A DNA stretch of 20,000 nt from an uncultured virus (IMG/VR IMGVR_UViG_3300046058_000006). Taxonomy: Duplodnaviria > Heunggongvirae > Uroviricota > Caudoviricetes. Of the stretch, positions 29 to 16,972 are shown piece by piece. The notes under the pieces were generated by a model, which was not told the origin of the DNA, did no database searches, and was given only the letters and a program-made list of their open reading frames with translations. Within the stretch, counting starts at the first letter, position 1. Every line of letters starts with the position of its first letter. The translations under genes and the position numbers were made by a program. The stretch lies in IMG/VR virus record IMGVR_UViG_3300046058_000006. One strand, written 5' to 3'.

Positions 29-931
29 CTAAGTGTTAATCAGGATTAACACGCAACGACACTGCGGATGGGTCGCCTGCGGGGGTAGCAGGTCCGAACG
101 GTTGTTTCTGACTTCTTGGATCGTATACTGTTTTCCTTCAAGCGCCTGGCACTGTGCGCACACGCGGTTATCCCCTGCCGTCGTATGCTCCATTTTCTTC
201 CCCGGCGTCGAACTGGCCCCTTCTATTCCGTATCCTACAGCGCGGTCGTCGTTGAACCAGTGATCATAAACATCCAGCGCGGTTTCGTTGTGCGCGCGTA
301 ACGTTTCGGTCCGGGCGATCATTTCGGCGCGGTGTACGCCAACTTTCCGCACGCGCTTACTAATCTGCCGGCCTACGTCGCGGGGGTTTTCCCCGCGAAG
401 CATACCGAACGTAAGCGTGTCCCGCACGTCGTCTGTAATGTCACCCGTCAGCGTTTCTAATTCGTTATAGTTGCGCGAAAACAAGCGCGAAAGCAACTGT
501 GATCTTTGCGCGCGGGGCAAAACATCTTCGCCGGCGTCGATCGCTATGCCAGCGCCTTCAAGCTGTGCGGTCGCAAAGGCTTCGCCTTTGGTTTCGGCGC
601 TTCTAACGTATTTCGCCGTGTAGTGCCGGCCTGCCGTTACTTCAGCGCGGCCCATCTTGTCTAAAACGCCCTGTTCGGCCTGTTCTTGTAACCAGCGGTT
701 GAACGCGGCGCGCGTCGCGGCCAGCGATCCGTCGTCTAAAGTTTCGGGTATACGATAATCTTCAAGCGCCGCGTCGGTCGTTCGGCGTTCGCTAATGGCC
801 AGCGCGTCGTTTTCGCCGATTGTCTTATTGACAGCCGCCGCCAAGCGCCGAACCCTGCCGGTTAGTTCCGGTCGGTACTGGCGTTCGCGTAGGTTGACCG
901 TGTGGCTTGGGTCGGCACTGTTCGATAGCAC
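29..931 (-). CDS. Phage head morphogenesis protein (Mu gpF / SPP1 gp7 family)
   Basis: Family motifs RAEMIARTETLRAHN, DNRVCAQC and C-terminal HPQCRC. Lies downstream of the portal gene. GTG start with a TATA-like CTATTA about 28 nt upstream. Confidence 0.9.
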   Translation of the reverse strand: MLSNSADPSHTVNLRERQYRPELTGRVRRLAAAVNKTIGENDALAISERRTTDAALEDYRIPETLDDGSLAATRAAFNRWLQEQAEQGVLDKMGRAEVTAGRHYTAKYVRSAETKGEAFATAQLEGAGIAIDAGEDVLPRAQRSQLLSRLFSRNYNELETLTGDITDDVRDTLTFGMLRGENPRDVGRQISKRVRKVGVHRAEMIARTETLRAHNETALDVYDHWFNDDRAVGYGIEGASSTPGKKMEHTTAGDNRVCAQCQALEGKQYTIQEVRNNRSDLLPPQATHPQCRCVLILINT

Positions 932-1409: not shown

Positions 1410-1567
1410 ATGTAACCGCTTAGGGCTATGCTACCGAACAGGATAAAGATACCGACTATAAAGCGCCAGGGACAGCGCCGCAACAGACCTTCGGTGATCA
1501 ACCACCCGCACAGGTAGCCGCCGACTATCGGAATAGCGAACGCCAGGGCCGTTTTGCCGGCTAACAT
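1406..1567 (-). CDS. Small 2-TM membrane protein (53 aa; not in ORF track)
   Basis: Manual translation: MLAGKTALAFAIPIVGGYLCGWLITEGLLRRCPWRFIVGIFILFGSIALSGYI*. It overlaps the upstream gene's stop by 7 nt and the downstream start by ATGA, filling the gap exactly. Confidence 0.75.
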   Translation of the reverse strand: MLAGKTALAFAIPIVGGYLCGWLITEGLLRRCPWRFIVGIFILFGSIALSGYI

Positions 1568-1851
1568 TGCCCCGCGCCCATGCCCGGCAGTTGGGTTACG
1601 TCTTTGACCCGAACGTACCGATCACATTCGGGACATTCGCCTTCGCAACCCTTGAAAACAAAGCTATTCGGGTCGCGGTCCATGCTTGGCATATAGGTAC
1701 AGTCAAAGTCGTATGCTTGTAGGGTTGATACGCTTTGGCAAAACGGACAGCGCGCCAGCGTGCCGCGCGCATTATCAGCAATGCCAGTTGTATACGACGC
1801 GCCCATCGGATCGGTTTTAGTCAGCGGGGGTTCGTAATTAGGCCCGGCCAT
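1561..1851 (-). CDS. Small Zn-finger (CPxC...CPxC) protein
   Basis: CPFC and CPEC pairs. Start reassigned to MAGPNY (ATG at 1851) because a TTTTTTAT box lies about 30 nt upstream. Confidence 0.7.
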   Translation of the reverse strand: MAGPNYEPPLTKTDPMGASYTTGIADNARGTLARCPFCQSVSTLQAYDFDCTYMPSMDRDPNSFVFKGCEGECPECDRYVRVKDVTQLPGMGAGQC

Positions 1852-1877
1852 GGCTGTAACCAGCAGGTTACAGCCAT
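1850..1877. promoter_or_regulatory. Perfect 12-bp inverted repeat (putative operator) between TATA box and start codon
   Basis: ATGGCTGTAACC-AGCA-GGTTACAGCCAT. Confidence 0.6.
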
Positions 1878-1921
1878 AAAAAAGTTGTATAAAAGTCACA
1901 CAAAGTCGCACCAAGCGCGAC

Positions 1922-2059
1922 TTAGACCCGTTCGTTGCAACCTACGATAAGGTTTCCACAGTCCGCACAGGTGATTCTACAGCCGTCCTTTGTCGGCGCG
2001 CCGCCGTCGGCACAGTGATAACAGTCTACCATCGGGATGCTTGGGTAATTCGCGGTCAT
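1922..2059 (-). CDS. Zn-finger microprotein (45 aa, two CxxC motifs)
   Basis: MTANYPSIPMVDCYHCADGGAPTKDGCRITCADCGNLIVGCNERV resembles haloarchaeal one-domain C(P)xCG Zn-finger microproteins. Start reassigned from 2188 to 2059. Confidence 0.65.
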   Translation of the reverse strand: MTANYPSIPMVDCYHCADGGAPTKDGCRITCADCGNLIVGCNERV

Positions 2060-2125
2060 ACTAAAATCTGTTCGTCGCGGCACAGGCACGTTAGTTTTAT
2101 ACGATCCAGGCGTGTACGAATAGCT

Positions 2126-2219
2126 GGCGCGATAGTAAAGCGCCTTGGGACCTAACGGCGTGGCATATCCGTTCGGTGTCTGATTCATGCGCTGTCAAAA
2201 GCGGGCTTTCGTCCGCTTT
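2126..2219 (+). ncRNA. Putative small RNA unit 0
   Basis: TTTTATAC box at 2095-2102; 5' hairpin GGCGC/GCGCC (2126-2144); TCGGTGTC motif at 2173-2180; terminal hairpin AAAGCGGGC-TTTC-GTCCGCTTT. The TATA box could instead serve the divergent gene at 2059. Confidence 0.35.
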
Positions 2220-2236
2220 CGTACAACGACGTAGGA

Positions 2237-2268
2237 TTTATATACGACCCGCGCATTAGAACGAAATG
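2237..2268 (+). promoter_or_regulatory. Archaeal promoter, unit 1
   Basis: TTTATATA at 2237-2244. Same TTTA-N15-TTAG-N4-AA(A/T)TGC spacing as the promoters at 2410 and 2510. Confidence 0.55.
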
Positions 2269-2410
2269 CGCGTGGAAATCCCGCGCGCGGACACGTCAAA
2301 CATGGTTTGTCAGCAACCCCACAGGGTTGCTTCGGTGTCAATGCCGCTTATCTGTTACCAAAAGCACCGGAAAGGGCCGGCCTTTTGCCGCCCTTTGTTA
2401 CGGTGTTTGG
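2268..2410 (+). ncRNA. Putative small RNA unit 1 (three-way junction)
   Basis: 5' hairpin at 2268-2286. GACAC/GTGTC (2290-2339) closes the hairpins CAAAC/GTTTG and AGCAACCC/GGGTTGCT. Long terminal hairpin at about 2358-2410. Confidence 0.5.
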
Positions 2411-2552
2411 AAAAGTTTAAGTTACAAACAGCCGTTAGTAGGAAATGCGCCGAAGCACACGGCGTAGCACTACAGTAAACAGCGGGTACTTTCCTTCCAC
2501 GCTGTTTTCGAAACGTTTAAATTACAACAAGCCATTAGTGTAAATTGCCCCG
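2410..2552 (+). repeat. Duplicated BRE-TATA promoter block (2410-2452 and 2510-2552, exactly 100 bp apart)
   Basis: GAAAAGTTTAAGTTACAAACAGCCGTTAGTAGGAAATGCGCCG vs GAAACGTTTAAATTACAACAAGCCATTAGTGTAAATTGCCCCG; 33/43 identical without gaps (counted by hand). Confidence 0.7.
2447..2508 (+). ncRNA. Putative small RNA unit 2 (two hairpins)
   Basis: 5' hairpin GCGCCG/CGGCGT and terminal hairpin AAACAGCG/CGCTGTTT, downstream of a BRE-TATA promoter. Confidence 0.45.
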
Positions 2553-2704
2553 TAAGGGCAACGCGGCTGTCGGTGTCAGCCGGGCCTGGATCACCCGGCG
2601 CAAGCGGGACACGCTTGCAATCCGATCATATGCGACCGGCGAATCCGTGCGGCACGACGCACGTCCGCGCCTGTAGCGCGGAAGTTATATTCGGTTCGCC
2701 GGTT
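2546..2704 (+). ncRNA. Putative small RNA unit 3 (two three-way junction modules)
   Basis: 5' hairpin TGCCC/GGGCA. Module a: TCGG/CCGA closes GCCGGG/CCCGGC and GCAAGCG/CGCTTGC. Module b: GACCGGCGAA/TTCGCCGGTT closes GTGCG/CGCAC and TCCGCGC/GCGCGGA. Confidence 0.5.
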
Positions 2705-2722
2705 AACACCTCCTTACAATCG

Positions 2723-4390
2723 TTAAGCGTCAGCTTCAGCGCCGCCGCCGTTTTCACCTTCCCCGCCTTCACCGCCCGCTTGCGCGCCTGCGATTTCCGC
2801 CAAGGTTTCGCCGTCCGCCGCTTCGATTTCCTGAAGCGCGTTTTCAAGTTCGGCGTAGTCCATGTTCAAATCCTGTTCTACGACCTGTTCAAGCGGTAGG
2901 TAAGCGTCTACACCGCTCTGGATATAGAGCTTCCAACCCTGCATATACTTATACCAGGCTTCAGCGTCAAAGTCTTCGTCCTTCAGCGGGCTTTTCGATT
3001 GATCGGATTCGATCGCAAATTCTACACTGTCTATAAGATCTTCGCGGTCGCTGTCCGCGACGCTAACAATCCCCCGATCGATCAAGAAGCGCGCCTTCTT
3101 CCGAAAGATACCAGTGTAGCCGTCGGAAATCCGCCGGCGAATCCGGTTAACGTCCCGGTCGAACTGTTCTACACGCGGTTCCGTAACGTCGCGGTTGATA
3201 CTGTCGCCAAAGCCGACATACGCCTTCGGAACGTTAAGCCCGCCATAGATCGTATCGATGCTCATACGGATCGACGGTTCTATGTCCGGCAGTTCCGGCG
3301 TGTGCCATTCGGTTTCGACGCCGGGCGGCACGCCGAAGATACCACCTGGCGAATTATGCGCGCCGCCGCCCGATCCATCCAGGTCCGAATAGTCGGTTTC
3401 GTCGCCGCTTCGCCGCCGGTTTTCCTTCCACCCGCGCGACCCTGAAGCGCCCGACCCGCGCCCGCGCAAAGCGTTAATGAACTGTTGCATCTGTTGGGTC
3501 GTCCATTCGATTATATCCCCGGAAGGCAGTTCGACCTGGTTGAAGCTAACGTTCGCACGCGGATGGGCGATATTTTTCAGCGCCGCGTTGTAGTCGTCGC
3601 GCCTGTTCTGTACCGCTATCGCTTCTTCCGCAACGGGTTCAACGATCGACATACCGCGAACTTGGCCGGCCTTTCCTGTACTGCCGGCGCTGTGGTTCGG
3701 CGTGTCCGGCATGGGGTTCCGAACGATCTTGGTAACGTCGCGCTGTGAAAGCGGCACTACGTCGGCTTCAGCCTTGGACGAAGCGCGCCCCATGTTCTGA
3801 ATGTAACAAGCCCATTCGCCGCGCGCATTCTGCGGCGTGCCTTCAGGCACGTTCGCCGCGTCGTCGTCCGGTCGAATCAGCCGATCGCTTTCGGGATAAC
3901 AAAGAATGTCAACAGATAACGGATCGATCGACTGAAAGCCGGAAAAGTGGCTTGGATCGGTCGGGTCGTCGTACATATGTTCAAGCAATACGGTTCCGTC
4001 CAAGTCATGCGCACGCGCGTCGTACCACAACTGCGGGCCTAACGGCTTGTCGTATTCGCCGCCGTAAATAACGCATTGATCGGCCCACTTTCGTAGCAGG
4101 TCGGTTAGGTCGTCGTCATCCGACCGAACAGTAAAGCCAGGCCGGGCGACTTCCCCGCAACGCAAATCCAGGCCGGGGTTGATGTACGGGTTTTCCCGGT
4201 ACAGCCGCCGGTATAGCTGTATCTGGTTACGATCGGGGGAACTGCGTTCGTAGCCGCCGGCGCTGAAGCCGCCGAACCCTGAAGTCGTAGTTTGTGGGTC
4301 GGGAATGTCGCCCAAGAAATCCGGGCGGTCGCCGTCGCTTAGTGCAAGCGCGGCTTTTGTAATGTCGCGCGCGTCGCTATATAAGCTCAT
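2723..4390 (-). CDS. Portal protein
   Basis: 555 aa, located between TerL and the gpF-like gene. Has portal-like segments (LYRENPYINPGLD, RGMSIVEPV, IYGGLNVPKAYVG) and an acidic tail. Confidence 0.85.
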   Translation of the reverse strand: MSLYSDARDITKAALALSDGDRPDFLGDIPDPQTTTSGFGGFSAGGYERSSPDRNQIQLYRRLYRENPYINPGLDLRCGEVARPGFTVRSDDDDLTDLLRKWADQCVIYGGEYDKPLGPQLWYDARAHDLDGTVLLEHMYDDPTDPSHFSGFQSIDPLSVDILCYPESDRLIRPDDDAANVPEGTPQNARGEWACYIQNMGRASSKAEADVVPLSQRDVTKIVRNPMPDTPNHSAGSTGKAGQVRGMSIVEPVAEEAIAVQNRRDDYNAALKNIAHPRANVSFNQVELPSGDIIEWTTQQMQQFINALRGRGSGASGSRGWKENRRRSGDETDYSDLDGSGGGAHNSPGGIFGVPPGVETEWHTPELPDIEPSIRMSIDTIYGGLNVPKAYVGFGDSINRDVTEPRVEQFDRDVNRIRRRISDGYTGIFRKKARFLIDRGIVSVADSDREDLIDSVEFAIESDQSKSPLKDEDFDAEAWYKYMQGWKLYIQSGVDAYLPLEQVVEQDLNMDYAELENALQEIEAADGETLAEIAGAQAGGEGGEGENGGGAEADA

Positions 4391-4469
4391 ATGGTTATAT
4401 TCTTTTTTATTACGTCGCGGTGTAAAAACATGAGCACGCGGGCCTACAAGCGCGTATCACTTTTCCGAC

Positions 4470-4700
4470 AAGCGCTAACTGAAGCGGCGGCTTCAGTTTG
4501 TATCAGAACCGCGACGGTTATAGCCCCTGGATTCAGCGCCGGCTGAAAGTCGCCCCTATTGTAGAAGGGACTGAAATGTTTTTTAGGACAGAAATCGCTT
4601 CTACCGCCCGATTAGAAATCGGGGGTCTGAAGCCGCCCGCAAATCAGCGCTGATTGTACGAACCGTACAACCCCTGTGTCTAAGTTTTCTGACACCGAAA
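4470..4700. other. Structured non-coding element upstream of portal
   Basis: GGCGGCTTCAG (4486-4496) is complementary to CTGAAGCCGCC (4627-4637) and encloses several short hairpins. No convincing ORF. Confidence 0.4.
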
Positions 4701-4722
4701 ACAGCCGCAAAAATCGGTTCCC

Positions 4723-4747
4723 AAGCCGGGCGCTTGTCGCCCGGCTT
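4723..4747. terminator. Perfect hairpin at the stop codon of the 4746 gene
   Basis: AAGCCGGGCG-CTTGT-CGCCCGGCTT, followed on the minus strand by a TTTTT tract. Confidence 0.45.
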
Positions 4748-8291: not shown

Positions 8292-9677
8292 CTAAAAGGC
8301 CGGGAAGTCACCGGGGAACGCGCGGAACGGAACCTGGCTTTGGGCGCGCAAGAATCCAAGTTCCGGCTGTGGTACATCCAGGCCTTCAGGGTAGACGACC
8401 ATGCCGATAGCGTCTTGGGAATGACCCGCGTACAGCAGGGCTTGGCTAACGCTTTCGCGCAAGACGCTTTCGGCGTCGTCTTCAGCTTCGATCATTAACA
8501 CGCCCAAGTTAGTGTCAACCACTACGTCCGGTTCGCGGCCGCTTTTCAACCGCGGTTCGATTAGCACCTTATCAGACCCGTACCGTTCTTCGAACGCGCG
8601 CGCGACCTGGTTAATCAGCGCGCGGTCGCTTGGCGGTCGCATATCGCCGGGGGCATCGTCGTCGCCTTCGCCGCCGTCGTCCGGTTCGTCGCCTTCAGGC
8701 GAATCGTCCGGCGATTCGCCAGGGTCGCCGGGTTCGTTTGGCATATCGCCGCGTTCGGGCGCGGCCAGCGCGGTCACACCTAACTGTTCTTCGATGTTTC
8801 CAAGCTTGTCAGCGATCGAAACGCGCTGTGAACCGCTGAAAACGTGTCCGATCAAACTTGGCCGGCCGCTGTCCGGGTTCGTAAGCAACGGCGCGCCACT
8901 ATCGCCGCCTTTGCTTTGTGCGGTCGTTACAAGCACGTCACGGCGTCGGACGTTTTCGTGGGCGTCGCCATAGCTAACGTCAACAGTCGCGTTTGTCGCG
9001 GTCACACGCCCGTCTGTTAGGCCTGTAGTCCGTCCGGTCTTTTGCACGCTGTCGCCGCGCATGACCGACCCGCCAGCTTGCATCGGACCGACGCCGTGCG
9101 GCAGGTACGCCCTTTGGCTTCGGCGTTCGCTTTCGCTTACAGACCGTGCGGCCGCGTCAGCCGGCGATCCATCTTCCAACAGCGAACCGCCCACGTATTC
9201 CCCCACAGTGCCGTCTGAATCACCGTCGATAGGCGACGGCTGTACGATCGGTTCGCCGACTTCAGCGTTTTCAGATCGCCCATAGACGTGCTGGTTAGAC
9301 ACACGTACCACCTGGCCGGCGTCAGCGTTCAAGCCGATTTCAGCGGCACTTGGGTCGGTTACACGCGCCATGAAGCCGGCAGTCGCCGCGCCGCCGCTGG
9401 CGTTCATTTCCGAAACGCCAGGTCGAACGGGCCGGTAGCGCCGTCGCGGGCTTTCAAGCCGGGCGCGCACGTCGTTGCCAAGCGCGCTAACGTCGTTGAC
9501 TTCAACCACGTCGGTATCAGCGTCGATACGTTCGCGCGCCAGTTTGCCCGACTTGATTTCATCTTCAGGTAGCTTTTCTTCGACCAAGACCACTACCTGT
9601 TCATCTTCGGCGCTTACGCCGCGCACACCGTCGTCCGAAAGGATAAATTCGTAATTCCGCGTGCTTCCACAGGACAT
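8292..9677 (-). CDS. Nal1-like trypsin-fold serine protease fused to a C-terminal PD-(D/E)XK-like domain
   Basis: Prodomain VVVLVEEKLP...DTDVVEV; RPVRPGVS; catalytic triad SNQH / ADAA / GGDSGA; VQKTGRTTGLTDG; D/E/P/G linker; then EPDVVV, MIEAED and QALLY. Confidence 0.8.
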   Translation of the reverse strand: MSCGSTRNYEFILSDDGVRGVSAEDEQVVVLVEEKLPEDEIKSGKLARERIDADTDVVEVNDVSALGNDVRARLESPRRRYRPVRPGVSEMNASGGAATAGFMARVTDPSAAEIGLNADAGQVVRVSNQHVYGRSENAEVGEPIVQPSPIDGDSDGTVGEYVGGSLLEDGSPADAAARSVSESERRSQRAYLPHGVGPMQAGGSVMRGDSVQKTGRTTGLTDGRVTATNATVDVSYGDAHENVRRRDVLVTTAQSKGGDSGAPLLTNPDSGRPSLIGHVFSGSQRVSIADKLGNIEEQLGVTALAAPERGDMPNEPGDPGESPDDSPEGDEPDDGGEGDDDAPGDMRPPSDRALINQVARAFEERYGSDKVLIEPRLKSGREPDVVVDTNLGVLMIEAEDDAESVLRESVSQALLYAGHSQDAIGMVVYPEGLDVPQPELGFLRAQSQVPFRAFPGDFPAF

Positions 9678-9712
9678 ATAGTATATACGACGCCCGCTTC
9701 TATAAATTTAGG
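9678..9712 (-). promoter_or_regulatory. Leaderless-type promoter for the protease fusion
   Basis: TTTATA (minus strand, 9701-9706) starts 29 nt before the ATG at 9677. Confidence 0.55.
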
Positions 9713-9885
9713 GCCAAAATCACTGTTGTAGAAATGAACAGCAGTAACAGGCCGCTGAAAAAGCCGGCCTTGAACCATTCGCGGCGATCCAGCGCGGTTA
9801 GTATCCATCGAACCAGTGTCGCGCTGTGAACCAGGATAACGACCATAAGAATGTATGCGGCGATTCGTATTCCCAAGTCGGTCAT
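9700..9885 (-). CDS. Small 2-TM membrane protein (array member 6)
   Basis: Two hydrophobic segments; ATGA-coupled. Confidence 0.75.
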   Translation of the reverse strand: MTDLGIRIAAYILMVVILVHSATLVRWILTALDRREWFKAGFFSGLLLLFISTTVILALNL

Positions 9886-10085
9886 ATCAGCCCTTCCGTC
9901 CGAAGCACTACCAGGATAACTTTACCGGATACATACGAAATTACAAGCGTAGCGCCGATAATCCCGATCCAGGTTTGCTGTTCGGGCGTCGTTCGTTTGA
10001 TAGCTTCGGCTATGGCAACGACTAACAAAACTGTTCCTACCAGGAACGTAAAGCCGATCGCCAAAGCAACCAGTTCTGAAATCAT
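9882..10085 (-). CDS. Small 2-TM membrane protein (array member 5)
   Basis: Two hydrophobic segments, SYVSGK at the end of TM2; ATGA-coupled on both sides. Confidence 0.8.
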   Translation of the reverse strand: MISELVALAIGFTFLVGTVLLVVAIAEAIKRTTPEQQTWIGIIGATLVISYVSGKVILVVLRTEGLI

Positions 10086-10300
10086 ATGTTTACCCCACTG
10101 TCGCGTAGCAGGTGTAGCGTCGCTTTACCCATTACGAACACGAACAGGGTAGCTATGAAACCCGCCCATATACGCCAGGCTTGATCATGCGTCAGACTGT
10201 TTTCTAAGATTGTCGCTAACTGAATCAGCGGCACAAAAGACACAAAGAATAGCTGTAGCACGAACACGCCCATTAGAAGCGCGGCCAGTAGTTCGTTCAT
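10082..10300 (-). CDS. Small 2-TM membrane protein (array member 4)
   Basis: Start reassigned to MNELL (10300), giving an ATGA overlap; VFVMGK at the end of TM2. Confidence 0.8.
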   Translation of the reverse strand: MNELLAALLMGVFVLQLFFVSFVPLIQLATILENSLTHDQAWRIWAGFIATLFVFVMGKATLHLLRDSGVNI

Positions 10301-10512
10301 GTTGCACCTGCCGCTTGTAGTATCGTCGCGCCGGTCATGTAACAGATAACCAGCGCCAGGGTAAGGACAGTTCCCCAAAACGCCTGTCTATCCGACGCCT
10401 TATCATTCAGGTAGCCAACTAACTTCATAAACCCGAAGCCAGCTACAATCAGCCCGAACCATACGACGAAACCAGCGCCTATAGCCGCCGCGCCGAAGGC
10501 AAAGGCGTTCAT
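10297..10512 (-). CDS. Small 2-TM membrane protein (array member 3)
   Basis: Two hydrophobic segments, CYMTGA; ATGA-coupled. Confidence 0.8.
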   Translation of the reverse strand: MNAFAFGAAAIGAGFVVWFGLIVAGFGFMKLVGYLNDKASDRQAFWGTVLTLALVICYMTGATILQAAGAT

Positions 10513-10742
10513 GCGTTTTCAGTCACCCATGCGATAGCGTCAGCGCCTATCGACTGTGCCGACCACAGCAGTACCACGAATACGATCAACCAAAAGAAAT
10601 CTTCGCGGTGATCCGAAAACGTCTGACTGTGTTCATCCAGCAGGTCTACCAGTTCCGCTAACAGTAGCCCGCCCGCACACACTGCGGCCAGCACGCCGAT
10701 GCCAGCGGCCAGGTTCAACAGGGTCGTTACCACGTCGATCAT
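10509..10742 (-). CDS. Small 2-TM membrane protein (array member 2)
   Basis: Two hydrophobic segments, AQSIGA; ATGA-coupled. Confidence 0.8.
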   Translation of the reverse strand: MIDVVTTLLNLAAGIGVLAAVCAGGLLLAELVDLLDEHSQTFSDHREDFFWLIVFVVLLWSAQSIGADAIAWVTENA

Positions 10743-10981
10743 GGCAAAGCCCCCGAAGCGACCGCGTTAGCCAGTTCAAGCGTTAGCTGTCCCATGAACC
10801 AGGCACAAATCAGCCCGAACACAAGCACGCCGAACAGGACGGGATAATCCAGCAGGGTTCTGTATTTCATCGGAACGCGGCTTTCAGCCATGATCAACAG
10901 TTCGCCGCTAATCACACCCAAAGCGACGATTATACCTATGACCAAGACGCCCAAGACGACTGTTAGAAGCGCCTGGATCAT
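10739..10981 (-). CDS. Small 2-TM membrane protein (array member 1)
   Basis: Two hydrophobic segments, AWFMGQ; ATGA-coupled. Confidence 0.8.
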   Translation of the reverse strand: MIQALLTVVLGVLVIGIIVALGVISGELLIMAESRVPMKYRTLLDYPVLFGVLVFGLICAWFMGQLTLELANAVASGALP

Positions 10982-14329: not shown

Positions 14330-16972
14330 TTACGCGAACGCCAGCAGTTCGGCCTGATTCGTCGCGTTCGGATTTAGATTAACCTGTTCGATCGCCTTCG
14401 TAAAGTAGTTTTGCCATATGTATGACCGGCTTTCCGGGGTAAAAGAAAAGGTGTCAACGCCCGCGCCAGGCACTTCTTGCGCCGCGCCATAGTCGGTATC
14501 TATTTCACCGTCCTTGTAGGCGCGCCAGGGTAGGGGTTCGTCCCGGTAGACCGGATGGATCACGCTTTCGCGCCCTGTATCGAACTTGATATAAGGCACT
14601 TTGTCACCGCGTCCAAGCTTCGCGCCGTCGATGTACCCGGCTTCGACCGCCGCGTTATACATCTTCGCGGCCCTGGCGTGCGCCGTATGGTTCGAATACG
14701 TATCACAGTTACATTCGTCGCGGTCACACACGCATGACAGCCGTTTTCGAAGCGACGCACGCTTTACCAGGTCGCCGTCGCGGTCGCCGTCTAACACGGC
14801 GTCGCGTTCGTCTAAGATAATCGGCGCGGTCGGTTCATCTTCTAACAGCGCTTCGACCAAGCGCGCTTGTAGGTTTGACGCGCCCTTCAGCGTGTCCGAC
14901 TTTTTGCACTTCAAGCCTACGACCTTGTGTTCGTCCGTCGCCTTTCCATCTTCCCAAACTTTCTTTACTGCATACGACTTTTTCTTGTCGGTCTGAATGA
15001 ACCGCGACGCGACATAATCCACGTCCAATTCTATGAACGATTCATCGCCGTTCATTTTAAACCCGACAAGGTGTTTGATGTGTCGATTCAGGCTGTCTAC
15101 AACAGCTTCCGCCGCGTCAGCCGCAACCTTGGCGCTGTCGTAGTCGTCCTTCAGGCTGATAAAGACGCTATCAGTGTCGCCGCCGATCACTTGGTCTACA
15201 GCGTCTATTTCGTTTTCTACGAACCGCCGGCTTTCGCGGATTAGGTACTGGCCGGTTTCGGTAATGTGTTCGGACATACCAGGGACGTAATAGCGGTGCA
15301 ATGGCGACGCGACCACGCCGAACGACGAATTATACAGGGACTTAATACCCATATACATAGCCGCCGCGACTTTCTTTTCAGGCGTGCCGTTTTCCGCCGC
15401 GTTCCGGCGATCTTTAAATTCTTGCGCCAAATCTTCCAAGTCCGACGTAGCATCGGCCAGGATGCCCCGCTCGTAATCTGGATGCAAGAATCCGCCGCGC
15501 GCGTCGCCGTCCTTTTCAGGGTCGAAGCGGCTGTTAACACCTTCGATAAACGGCTGTTCCGTGTTCGCCCAATAGTCGCCAGGTCCGTCAGCCGTCTTGT
15601 TAACGTCTAACAGCTTCGGTTTCGTTATGATTTCCCGGTCGTCCAAGTAGTCGCCGACTTCTTTTTTCAGACCTTCGTAGCCGTCCGTATCAACCCAAGT
15701 GTTTTCGCCCATGTTTAGCGCCTGAATGATGCTTGGATACATCGAACTGAAGTCAGCGACGAATACCCATTCGTGCGTTCCCGGCGTCGTTTCGAACACG
15801 TAGCCGCCCGGAAATTCGCCAGTGTCCCGGTAGCGCCCGCGATCGGGGAACACGTAGCCCTGTTCGTTCGCGCGCCGTAAGATCACACCGTCAACGGCCT
15901 TTCCGACCGCGACGCGCGGGTAGCCGTTGCTGTCGTAGGTGATCGTAGACATTCGCGTATGCCCCTGTTTGCACACACGCGCGGTCGTTTCGACAAGTAG
16001 GTACTGTTCCGAAATGCGGCGCGTTAAATCCGCGTCCTGTAGGTTGTAGGACTTCAGGCGTTCCGGGTCGTTATTCCACCATTCGCGTAGTTGCTTGTAC
16101 GATTCGCTTTCGTCCATATCCTTCGAATCGCCTAATTCGTGTTCGGCGACCGAATCCAGGCCATAGCTGTCTAATTGGTCGCGCTTGAACGACCGGAACA
16201 GGCCCATGGCGTCGAAATGGATCAAGCCAAATTCCGGCCAGGTAAAGCCCGAAACGCGGTCACTTTCTTCAAGCCGGTTTTTCAGGTACGGCAGATCGAA
16301 CGATTCGCTATTCCACCCGACAAGCACAAAGTAGTTTTCCAACAGACCGCCGTCGGAACGATCGGCCGGGTTCCCTATCAGTTCGGTGTAGATTTCCTGT
16401 TCCGTGCCAGTGATGAAAAATTCGTTGCCTTCGCCGTCAACCGCCGCGAAGGAAAGGATTTGCGCGTCCGCGTCGTCCGGTTCGGGGAACCCATCGGCCG
16501 GGTCTACTTCTATGTCAAAGTATAGCACGTCGCCCGGATCGGGCGTATCCAGTTCAAGCAGGTCCGGGCGATCGATTAAGACGCGCCTGGCATAAGGCAC
16601 GTCAGCCTGGTAGGTTTCCGGCACTATGTCAGCGTCGCTTTGCGGCATATCGGCCAGGTCGTCCCGAAGGTCGTCCAATTCGTTGCGAAAGCTACCGATC
16701 GTTCCGGGCGCTTCGGCTTCTACTTTCACGAAACCGTCCGGCGCATTATCGTAGTCCGGGTTCGTCCAAGCTTCCCACAGTTCGGTCTTAGACGTATCCA
16801 GTTCGCCCCATGGAATGTTATCAAAGTCGCCGACTTCCATGTAGAAGTACGGGTTGAACGGGGCTTTGAACTGTTTTCGGACTTTTTCGCCGTTTTCTTT
16901 CATTAACAGCTCAACGTACAACGGATCGTCCGTATTGTCGAACCCATATTGCAGGTCGTACACGCGGGACAT
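14330..16972 (-). CDS. polB: Family B DNA polymerase with 3'-5' exonuclease
   Basis: ExoI FDIE, ExoII WNSESFD, ExoIII YNLQD; polymerase motifs DFSSMYPS, KSLYNSSFG, GDTDS, KKKSY. Confidence 0.96.
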   Translation of the reverse strand: MSRVYDLQYGFDNTDDPLYVELLMKENGEKVRKQFKAPFNPYFYMEVGDFDNIPWGELDTSKTELWEAWTNPDYDNAPDGFVKVEAEAPGTIGSFRNELDDLRDDLADMPQSDADIVPETYQADVPYARRVLIDRPDLLELDTPDPGDVLYFDIEVDPADGFPEPDDADAQILSFAAVDGEGNEFFITGTEQEIYTELIGNPADRSDGGLLENYFVLVGWNSESFDLPYLKNRLEESDRVSGFTWPEFGLIHFDAMGLFRSFKRDQLDSYGLDSVAEHELGDSKDMDESESYKQLREWWNNDPERLKSYNLQDADLTRRISEQYLLVETTARVCKQGHTRMSTITYDSNGYPRVAVGKAVDGVILRRANEQGYVFPDRGRYRDTGEFPGGYVFETTPGTHEWVFVADFSSMYPSIIQALNMGENTWVDTDGYEGLKKEVGDYLDDREIITKPKLLDVNKTADGPGDYWANTEQPFIEGVNSRFDPEKDGDARGGFLHPDYERGILADATSDLEDLAQEFKDRRNAAENGTPEKKVAAAMYMGIKSLYNSSFGVVASPLHRYYVPGMSEHITETGQYLIRESRRFVENEIDAVDQVIGGDTDSVFISLKDDYDSAKVAADAAEAVVDSLNRHIKHLVGFKMNGDESFIELDVDYVASRFIQTDKKKSYAVKKVWEDGKATDEHKVVGLKCKKSDTLKGASNLQARLVEALLEDEPTAPIILDERDAVLDGDRDGDLVKRASLRKRLSCVCDRDECNCDTYSNHTAHARAAKMYNAAVEAGYIDGAKLGRGDKVPYIKFDTGRESVIHPVYRDEPLPWRAYKDGEIDTDYGAAQEVPGAGVDTFSFTPESRSYIWQNYFTKAIEQVNLNPNATNQAELLAFA

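Follow-up and report, generated by a model that had tools for sequence, protein, structure and literature searches.

The subject of this study is a noncoding cassette in a 20,000-nt stretch of DNA (hereafter the window), which is part of an uncultured haloarchaeal tailed virus (IMG/VR record IMGVR_UViG_3300046058_000006) and carries terminase subunits, a family-B polymerase, a helicase and an ERCC4 nuclease. The cassette lies in the gap from the portal stop to a 36-codon CxxC gene (1922-2032). Judging from its sequence, it appears to be a real cassette of structured viral small RNAs, conserved across lineages and including a copy of the tail found on 16S ribosomal RNA (rRNA), and it is probably transcribed. 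What can be observed is a set of promoter-like sites and folds, with their conservation, their strand and a shared motif.

An initial annotation of the same DNA had placed the element at 2095..2705 and described it as duplicated, diversified, promoter-driven RNAs, other than transfer RNAs (tRNAs), of no known family. The description agrees with the promoter ranks, the layout found in all four relatives, a divergence that keeps structure in two domains, the loss of an open reading frame (ORF) in relative L001 and blank Rfam and ARAGORN searches, while transcription is something that we infer. The coordinates hold except at the 3' end, which extends to about 2720. The annotation overlooked the 16S-tail copy at 2707-2716, which is the most conserved motif and the single feature common to all lineages, and which falls outside the span it gave.

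Tandem promoters of the cassette

AT boxes were confirmed at the four positions named as TATA boxes in the initial annotation (2095, 2237, 2416 and 2516). The shared spacing TTTA-N15-TTAG-N4-AA(A/T)TGC occurs exactly three times in the window, always in the cassette, and when one mismatch was allowed the count was still three against 0.03 expected, a number that none of 200 shuffles reached. As claimed, 100 bp separate promoter 2416 from promoter 2516, with 33 of 46 positions identical without gaps (77% over 47 nt).

As an independent test, a matrix for promoters was built from the regions upstream of 100 genes in the relatives G003 and G004 and scanned over the window (39,936 positions). The five best sites, in order 2416, 2517, 2685, the minus strand of 2418, and 2238, all fall inside the 630-bp cassette stretch. 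The matrix is noisy, with 125 sites above 6 bits, and promoter 0 (2095) is weak by this measure, ranking 373rd in the window and 22nd in L001. In an alignment of 12 units from five genomes, every unit has an AT box starting near -31 and a G at +1 that follows a T and opens a stem, and 11 have TA at -11/-10; the +1 position was picked by the analyst as the first G of the 5' hairpin. With its TATA box about 26-31 nt before a G start, this layout seems to resemble the one measured in halovirus HF2, where TATA begins at -26 and transcripts start at G (PMC8707807; papers are cited by PMC number for the passages drawn on).

No sigma-70 site was found in 1800-2800, and a simple terminator scan returned three sites against 1.7 in shuffles. 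We consider it highly probable that the cassette units are transcribed. An RNA started from the doubtful site at 2685 would be antisense to the portal 3' end. The complete relative G004 encodes a TFB (14688-15560, L132), which fits an archaeal host, and this virus-encoded factor could read the cassette promoters.

Folding of the units

Hairpins had been claimed at the expected start sites, and 5' hairpins were found at 2126, 2268, 2447 and 2547; the closing hairpins of units 0-2 are A/T-flanked, as described. The word TCGGTGTC, reported for units 0, 1 and 3, is present at 2173, 2332 and 2570, with the unit 1 copy lost in L001 and an extra copy on the minus strand at 4698. As to the structured bodies, folding is far better than in shuffles for units 1 and 2 and for the 3' half of unit 3 (plus-strand z values in Table 1), but not for unit 0, with 26 of 200 shuffles folding equally well; its L001 counterpart is better, with z -3.2. 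Among 332 window segments of 120 nt, z falls below -2 in 9.6% (plus strand) and 10.5% (minus strand), and because about 10% of such segments reach this value, little can be read into one moderately low z.

The promoter strand gives the better fold in 10 of 14 segments, most clearly in the inverted unit of G003, where it has z -4.0 and 9 G-U pairs, against z -0.4 on the other strand; folds that depend on G-U pairs would argue for RNA and against DNA cruciforms. There may be some likeness to tRNA anticodon loops, to the Alu domain of the signal recognition particle RNA and to CRISPR repeats; the sequence of the CRISPR-like hairpin of unit 1 is altered in L001.

Relatives and modularity

A related portal was found in four records, L001/G001 (97% identity), L002/G002 (70%), L125/G003 (54%) and L126/G004 (56%). 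The sampling is narrow, as three of the four have names with a common dataset prefix. Promoter-led structured units lie near the portal end in all four, numbering four in G001, two in G002 and one each in G003 and G004, and the cassette is convergent with the portal gene in four of the five genomes. The G003 unit is inverted and stands beyond the CxxC gene; its promoter pattern matches nowhere else in 52.8 kb, and promoter, fold and tail copy all go with one strand. The bodies cannot be aligned across lineages beyond short words, and the layout of TATA, TA at -11/-10 and G at +1 is kept. No further unit copies were found in G003 or G004 by nhmmer with every unit.

The short words recur in definite places. 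A 14-mer and a 9-mer closing a junction are common to the window, G001 and G002, with TCGGTGTCA and GCAATCCGATCATA separated by 41-100 nt in L001 and L002; a 12-mer is common to window unit 1 and G004; and the 7-mer CUUUCCU sits in a hairpin loop in three lineages (window, L002 and L125). Contigs from four DNA sequencing runs were compared with the window as well. Among the matches listed, contigs X3 and X4 have 171 and 51 nt of the cassette interior swapped for 107 and 92 other letters, rejoining at 2612, and the arms of domain A are replaced in both. The cassette is therefore modular.

Between the window and L001, unit 2 is identical and unit 0 differs by 4 substitutions in 100 nt plus insertions, while four-fold sites differ at 41 of 255 in the portal gene and 30 of 155 in the gpF gene; the low divergence of these units could also be explained by mosaic recombination. 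L001 refolds hairpins at equivalent places. Domain B keeps its shape after 15 substitutions, and equally stable random mutants numbered 5 of 2000, or 96 of 2000 if the changes were clustered. For unit 1, 52 and 71 of 2000 random mutants were as stable as L001, and for the 5' hairpin in unit 3 the number was 90 of 2000. RNAalifold on the two sequences gave 2 double changes in 44 for unit 1 and 0 in 33 for unit 3, which it misaligned.

A search by neighbour proteins returned the same four records and three weak unrelated matches, a metagenome scan yielded one weak fragment match, and two genome scans gave none. A scan for the 14-mer returned at least 121 stretches, and among 123 matches examined the partner motifs occurred only in L001/L017 and L002; a two-motif scan found L001 alone. 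A promoter-plus-tail scan gave 11 loci, none cassette-like, with a pattern too strict for G003 itself. By blastn against phages and plasmids, every match had E>=2.

A conserved copy of the 16S rRNA tail

The word CACCUCCU (CACCTCCT as DNA) is the only 8-mer common to the cassettes of the window, G002, G003 and G004 on either strand, and it equals the anti-Shine-Dalgarno (anti-SD) core of the 16S rRNA tail. Any shared 8-mer among four lineages arose in 4 of 5000 shuffles and in 6 of 5000 sets of random segments. It is always on the promoter strand, 0-8 nt 3' of a hairpin, and the five records hold 1, 1, 1, 1 and 2 copies of CACCTCCT, one of them always inside the cassette. The predicted probability that the motif is unpaired is 0.72, 0.57, 0.46, 0.95 and 0.83 in the five genomes, against unit means near 0.4; the first value is that of the window, where the unit mean is 0.42.

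With its flanks, the tail copy matches 9-10 nt of the 16S tails in Table 2 of PMC6107228, with 10 nt for the copy of the window, a paper whose main text is without archaea. The tail of the host was inferred from the Haloferax volcanii Shine-Dalgarno sequence (SD) GGAGGUGA (PMC3986360) and the ACCTCC core (PMC6728339), and CACCTCCT is this core extended by one base on each side, as used in PMC6728339 for archaea and bacteria. In addition, GGATCACC, the 5' half of the 16S tail as given in PMC6107228, lies in a loop of unit 3 domain A (2586-2595) that is kept in L001. Overall, we regard the tail copy as likely to be functional. Separately, in L002 6200-6310 (G002 unit 2) the portal strand gives the better fold (z -4.1), and a hairpin loop on that strand holds GATCACCT, another word that resembles the 16S tail.

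Possible Shine-Dalgarno masking and its alternatives

We favour, tentatively, the possibility that the tail copy of unit 3 acts by masking SD motifs used for reinitiation in host operons. Each module would consist of a host-type promoter (B recognition element, TATA, TA at -11/-10 and G at +1), a protective 5' hairpin and an exchangeable structured body, with a U-tailed closing hairpin added in units 0-2, and would give an independently promoted, trans-acting small RNA. The exposed single-stranded tail of the unit 3 RNA would pair with SD motifs, and an exposed anti-SD in abundance would be a competitor of the ribosome at the junctions of host operons. Translation of host operon genes would be damped, since haloarchaeal SDs serve reinitiation at downstream operon genes and are not used in 5' untranslated regions (5'-UTRs) or for first genes (PMC6728339); a full 8-nt SD is present at 31 H. 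volcanii operon junctions (PMC3986360). The mostly leaderless viral mRNAs would be spared. In most viral genes a TATA box precedes the ATG by about 30 nt, and strong SDs are scarce before viral genes by crude gene calls (6/26, 1/9, 3/53, of which one is a contig-edge artefact, and 3/64).

Units 0-2 lack the tail and may be sister RNAs that show other short pyrimidine-rich loops, such as CUUUCCU, to other targets. One candidate role for the loops, as anti-start-codon guides to the virus's own genes, was not supported. CAT is not enriched (6 in 628 nt), the best match to an own-gene start (11 nt) was equalled by 5 of 60 nulls, and the matches are not above background, with pooled p of 0.05-0.78 over six settings and a best single-genome p of 0.038 among 24 tests. 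Single matches, such as 10 nt between the unit 3 loop and the beginning of ORF 10739-10981 or 11 nt between unit 1 and the helicase start, are anecdotal.

Several points weigh against small RNAs that mask SDs. The opposite strand gives the better fold for four segments, namely unit 0 and domain A of the window and the two units of G002. In a fixed alignment of the window and L001, 125 pairs are unchanged, 5 are kept (3 of them with changes on both sides), 10 are broken and 7 gapped, and the loop hairpin 2576-2602 is no more stable in L001 than in random mutants (820/2000, not significant). Divergence preserves structure in two domains, and the covariation signal is thin and mixed. The tail is present in just one of the four window units, and in G002 the motif stands 3' of a terminator-like hairpin and has the lowest unpaired probability. 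A duplex of 8-10 nt is short, no helper protein was identified among the 61 G004 proteins scanned, and the virus's own coupled genes carry SD-like sites. H. volcanii makes no use of SDs in 5'-UTRs, and when SDs at its operon junctions were removed, reinitiation fell by 20-80% in six of the seven pairs and rose in the other (PMC6728339); these effects are partial and variable, and the effect of masking could therefore be modest. Expression of the units, too, is read from the sequence.

The main rival to SD masking is a nuclease decoy, which we consider unlikely. Here the hairpin and tail would imitate helix 45 and the anti-SD and absorb a nuclease or sensor with which the host attacks the 3' end of 16S rRNA, and the other units would be mimics of other substrates or antitoxins. 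In the window and L001 the distance from the stem to CCUCCU is 4-6 nt, compared with a spacing of 5 in rRNA (PMC6107228), yet the spacing ranges over 2-10 nt across lineages and the hairpins have no sequence in common with helix 45. The mycobacterial toxins RelE1 and MazF6 cut at or beside the anti-SD, but RelE1 cuts 16S rRNA in 30S and 70S particles, so free RNA may be no substrate (PMC12620021). Antitoxin mimicry by a phage RNA is established (PMC3475682), and the rapid exchange of unit interiors fits an arms race; no report of a haloarchaeal 16S-tail nuclease came up, in searches not aimed at one.

Rather improbable, in our judgement, is a cis-acting insulator or antisense device, in which convergent promoters and two-way hairpins would end or disturb read-through from the portal gene and the RNA bodies would be secondary; HF2 counter-transcripts, the phiH1 antisense RNA Tant and PeSL-like elements are the precedents. 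The cassette is convergent with the portal in most genomes, its closing hairpins have A and T runs on both flanks, the possible promoter at 2685 is directed into the portal gene, and repeated promoters with counter-transcripts are known in HF2 (PMC8707807). Such a device is hard to reconcile with the inverted G003 unit beyond the CxxC gene, with closing hairpins within 60-145 nt of each promoter in units 0-2, and with internal motifs of 9-14 nt kept between otherwise unalignable lineages.

We give about as little credence to scaffold or protein-binding RNAs, that is, a virion or packaging RNA or a sponge for a host or viral protein, with the conserved words as protein sites. The cassette does sit in the head module and has three-way junctions, and the stem closed by TCGGTGTCA and GCAATCCGATCATA keeps its sequence around arms of varying length. 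However, alignment of the units between lineages is limited to short words, in contrast to a core structural RNA, there is no gap after the portal gene in ChaoS9 or HGTV-1, and no RNA-binding family was found among the 61 G004 proteins.

It is quite improbable that the opposite strand does the work, either as an SD in the portal 3' untranslated region that lacks a start codon and parks a 30S subunit, or as the relic SD of a lost gene. In its favour, the portal strand of the window, L001 and L126 has AGGAGGUG at 8-30 nt past the portal stop, H. volcanii translation is repressed by an 8-nt SD (PMC3986360), and in G002 unit 2 the portal strand is the better folded. But a start codon follows the SD by 2-10 nt at none of the five sites, against 5 of 13 AGGAGGTG sites in a haloarchaeal plasmid; the G002 site is about 185 nt from the stop; in G003 an SD would read antisense to the portal strand, and folding is strongly in favour of the promoter strand; and a relic would not persist at 54-70% portal identity.

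Leaderless small-protein genes are very improbable: units 1 and 2 do have an ATG at their start site, placed as in leaderless viral genes at 29 nt behind the TATA box, and it opens ORFs of 70 and 32 codons, the shorter of unchanged length in L001, but the longer (2266-2478, 70 aa) is frameshifted to 31 codons there, the shorter differs at 6 residues, all where it overlaps promoter 3, neither is acidic, the longer has no Pfam or PHROG match, and unit 3 and the G002 units start with TTGC or GTGC instead of ATGC. The short ORFs of the cassette are unconserved among relatives, in keeping with the earlier claim that it holds no credible ORF.

Setting of the cassette

The features of the cassette and its neighbours are listed in Table 1. 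The closest isolated relatives of the window virus are distant haloviruses. A longer ORF that extends the CxxC gene (1922-2188) is unconserved, its ATG at 2057-2059 being altered in L001 and, among the matches listed, in run contigs X2, X3 and X4.

Table 1 Coordinates of the cassette features and neighbouring genes in the window.
Feature	Position	Strand	Remarks
Promoter 0	2085..2125	+	TATA 2095-2102, TA at -11/-10, +1 G at 2126; alignment of 12 units
Unit 0, putative RNA of ~97 nt	2126..2222	+	5' hairpin, middle stem-loop, TCGGTGTC, A/U-flanked closing hairpin; z -1.1
Promoter 1	2226..2267	+	TATA 2237-2244; rank 5; pattern match
Unit 1, putative RNA of ~143 nt	2268..2410	+	z -4.0, 0/200 shuffles; 2270-2281 is the 12-mer common with the G004 unit
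Promoter 2	2405..2446	+	TATA 2416-2423; rank 1 (+) and rank 4 (-), scoring on both strands
Unit 2, putative RNA of ~62 nt	2447..2508	+	5' hairpin, linker, closing hairpin, loop CUUUCCU (2489-2495); z -2.3 (+) vs -0.4 (-)
Promoter 3	2505..2546	+	TATA 2516-2523; duplicate of promoter 2; rank 2; 77% over 47 nt
Unit 3, domain A	2547..2633	+	5' hairpin and junction closed by TCGGTGTCA (2570) and GCAATCCGATCATA (2617), arms exchangeable; z -2.0
Unit 3, domain B	2634..2704	+	Three-way junction, 12-13 bp stem; z -5.3 for 2633-2720
Possible fifth promoter, doubtful	2678..2715	+	TATA-like at 2685; rank 3 in window, rank 61 in L001
16S rRNA 3' tail copy CACCUCCUUA	2707..2716	+	Predicted mostly single-stranded; CCUCCU 4-5 nt behind stem
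Portal gene	2723..4390	-	Upstream neighbour, convergent with cassette; phrog_9232 E 2e-40; distant matches to ChaoS9 and HGTV-1 portals
Small CxxC zinc-finger gene, 36 aa	1922..2032	-	Similar CxxC ORFs in L001, L002, L125, L126
Mu gpF / SPP1 gp7-like head morphogenesis gene	29..931	-	PF04233 E 7e-14

A second noncoding, hairpin-rich block lies upstream of the portal gene (window 4440-4745, L001 1206-1504, L002 3616-3808). By nhmmer it is conserved from the window to G002 (E 1e-9), an invariant hairpin of 4 bp and an 8-nt loop lying near 4555-4572; it has no clear match in G003 or G004 and no Rfam or tRNA match; it is possibly another RNA or a packaging signal. Downstream of the cassette, a CxxC protein of 91-96 aa (window 1561-1851, minus strand) is encoded in all five genomes and has no curated family match. 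A perfect 12-bp inverted repeat with a 4-nt loop at 1850-1877 (z -5.4 on the minus strand) lies over the start of the 96-aa zinc-binding gene and is changed in L001.

Further along the minus strand, a trypsin-like protease gene (8292-9677, phrog_20754) lies upstream of the terminase in the window and adjoins gpF in G003. Six short hydrophobic ORFs follow one another in 9700-10981, most overlapping by ATGA and several with SD-like sites, in the manner of translationally coupled membrane proteins. In G003, a 303-aa gene is inserted in reverse between the terminase and portal genes (L125 3969-4880, minus strand) and may be a homing endonuclease.

Significance

It is quite possible, though short of probable, that the virus makes stand-alone small RNAs, one of them a free mimic of the 16S 3' end (hairpin and anti-SD) that silences SD-dependent reinitiation while leaderless viral mRNAs escape, or that decoys a defence nuclease directed at the 16S tail. 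If so, this would be an RNA-based translational takeover or counter-defence, undescribed for archaeal viruses in the literature searched. The haloviral noncoding RNAs found in the parts of the literature covered are tRNAs, tRNA-like elements, a hammerhead and cis-antisense transcripts; neither a haloviral tandem cassette of separately promoted small RNAs nor a viral 16S-tail mimic came up in our search, which took in few subscription papers.

Haloarchaea make no use of SDs in 5'-UTRs, and why they nevertheless keep the anti-SD is an open question in the literature (PMC3986360, PMC6728339). Conservation of exactly this tail, in a putative small RNA and between lineages with portal identities of 54-70%, suggests that SD/anti-SD pairing may be worth attacking or imitating. 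The cassette would then be a ready tool for probing the role of this pairing in haloarchaea, and a unit is a reagent of 60-175 nt, testable in H. volcanii with existing reinitiation reporters.

Comparison with known systems

The search for known families was blank. An Rfam check of 1500-3500 at E<=10 gave one match, with E 6.1, within the portal gene; Rfam 15 gave none at three relative loci (E<=3) and none in the window, G003 and G004 at gathering thresholds. ARAGORN found no tRNA or transfer-messenger RNA in the window or in any of nine loci, and the T-loop consensus is absent from the five cassettes. In the same cassettes, neither strand has a C-box match for box C/D small RNAs (one CTGA occurs in three of the five) or the hammerhead core CUGANGA. 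For TIGR-Tas, PF01798 (the Nop-domain Tas) is absent from G003 (81% complete) and G004 (complete). Regular, near-identical repeats as in a TIGR-Tas or CRISPR mini-array were not found either, only the promoters being repeated, at spacings of 142, 179 and 100. C-rich, SD-pairing small RNAs such as RsaE are bacterial and chromosomal, have defined targets and expose pyrimidine-rich single strands between or in hairpins; no sequence or Rfam match to RsaE-type RNAs was found in the cassette.

Among described systems, the HF2 class I intergenic repeats are likewise repeated haloviral promoters with a TTTAAGT-type TATA box and a G start, some of them bidirectional, but they are dispersed and drive gene modules, whereas the cassette is tandem, each promoter leading into a hairpin-bounded noncoding body (PMC8707807). 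Compared with the 8-12 nt motifs quoted in the text of that paper, the window has GTTTAAGT at 2415 and TTAG at -12, and the class I motifs beta (containing CTTTAAGT) and gamma (CGTCTNNTAGAG) are absent from the 12 promoters. A repeat of about 40 nt, also like the HF2 intergenic repeats, was seen upstream of three G004 genes including the helicase (about 57732, 58949 and 13004).

Pseudo-ToxI of phage PhiTE is also a viral noncoding RNA that has expanded in copy number and mimics a host RNA, but it is an array of near-identical repeats mimicking an antitoxin, whereas the cassette units differ in sequence and have their own promoters (PMC3475682). The phiH1 Tant RNA is a haloviral regulatory RNA opposite viral genes and is complementary to its target transcript, while the cassette RNAs would be intergenic, with one relative inverted (described in PMC8707807). 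CreT RNA toxins are small hairpin RNAs that act on translation initiation and are known from haloarchaea; they contain an SD, a start codon and a mini-ORF (PMC10097628), whereas the cassette units hold the SD complement, and neither SD plus ATG nor AGAAGA is present on the promoter strand. Finally, the PeSL elements of the T4-type phages RB49 and phi1 are repeated promoter and stem-loop modules that favour modular shuffling (PMC2839356). They are bacterial sigma-70 elements ending in the SD and start codon of a gene, unlike the cassette, which has no sigma-70 promoter, no downstream gene with SD and start codon at its 3' end, folded bodies of 60-220 nt as putative RNAs, and an anti-SD motif. 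In its build, the cassette resembles HF2 repeat promoters coupled to shuffling modules of the PeSL kind, with a cargo that is noncoding.

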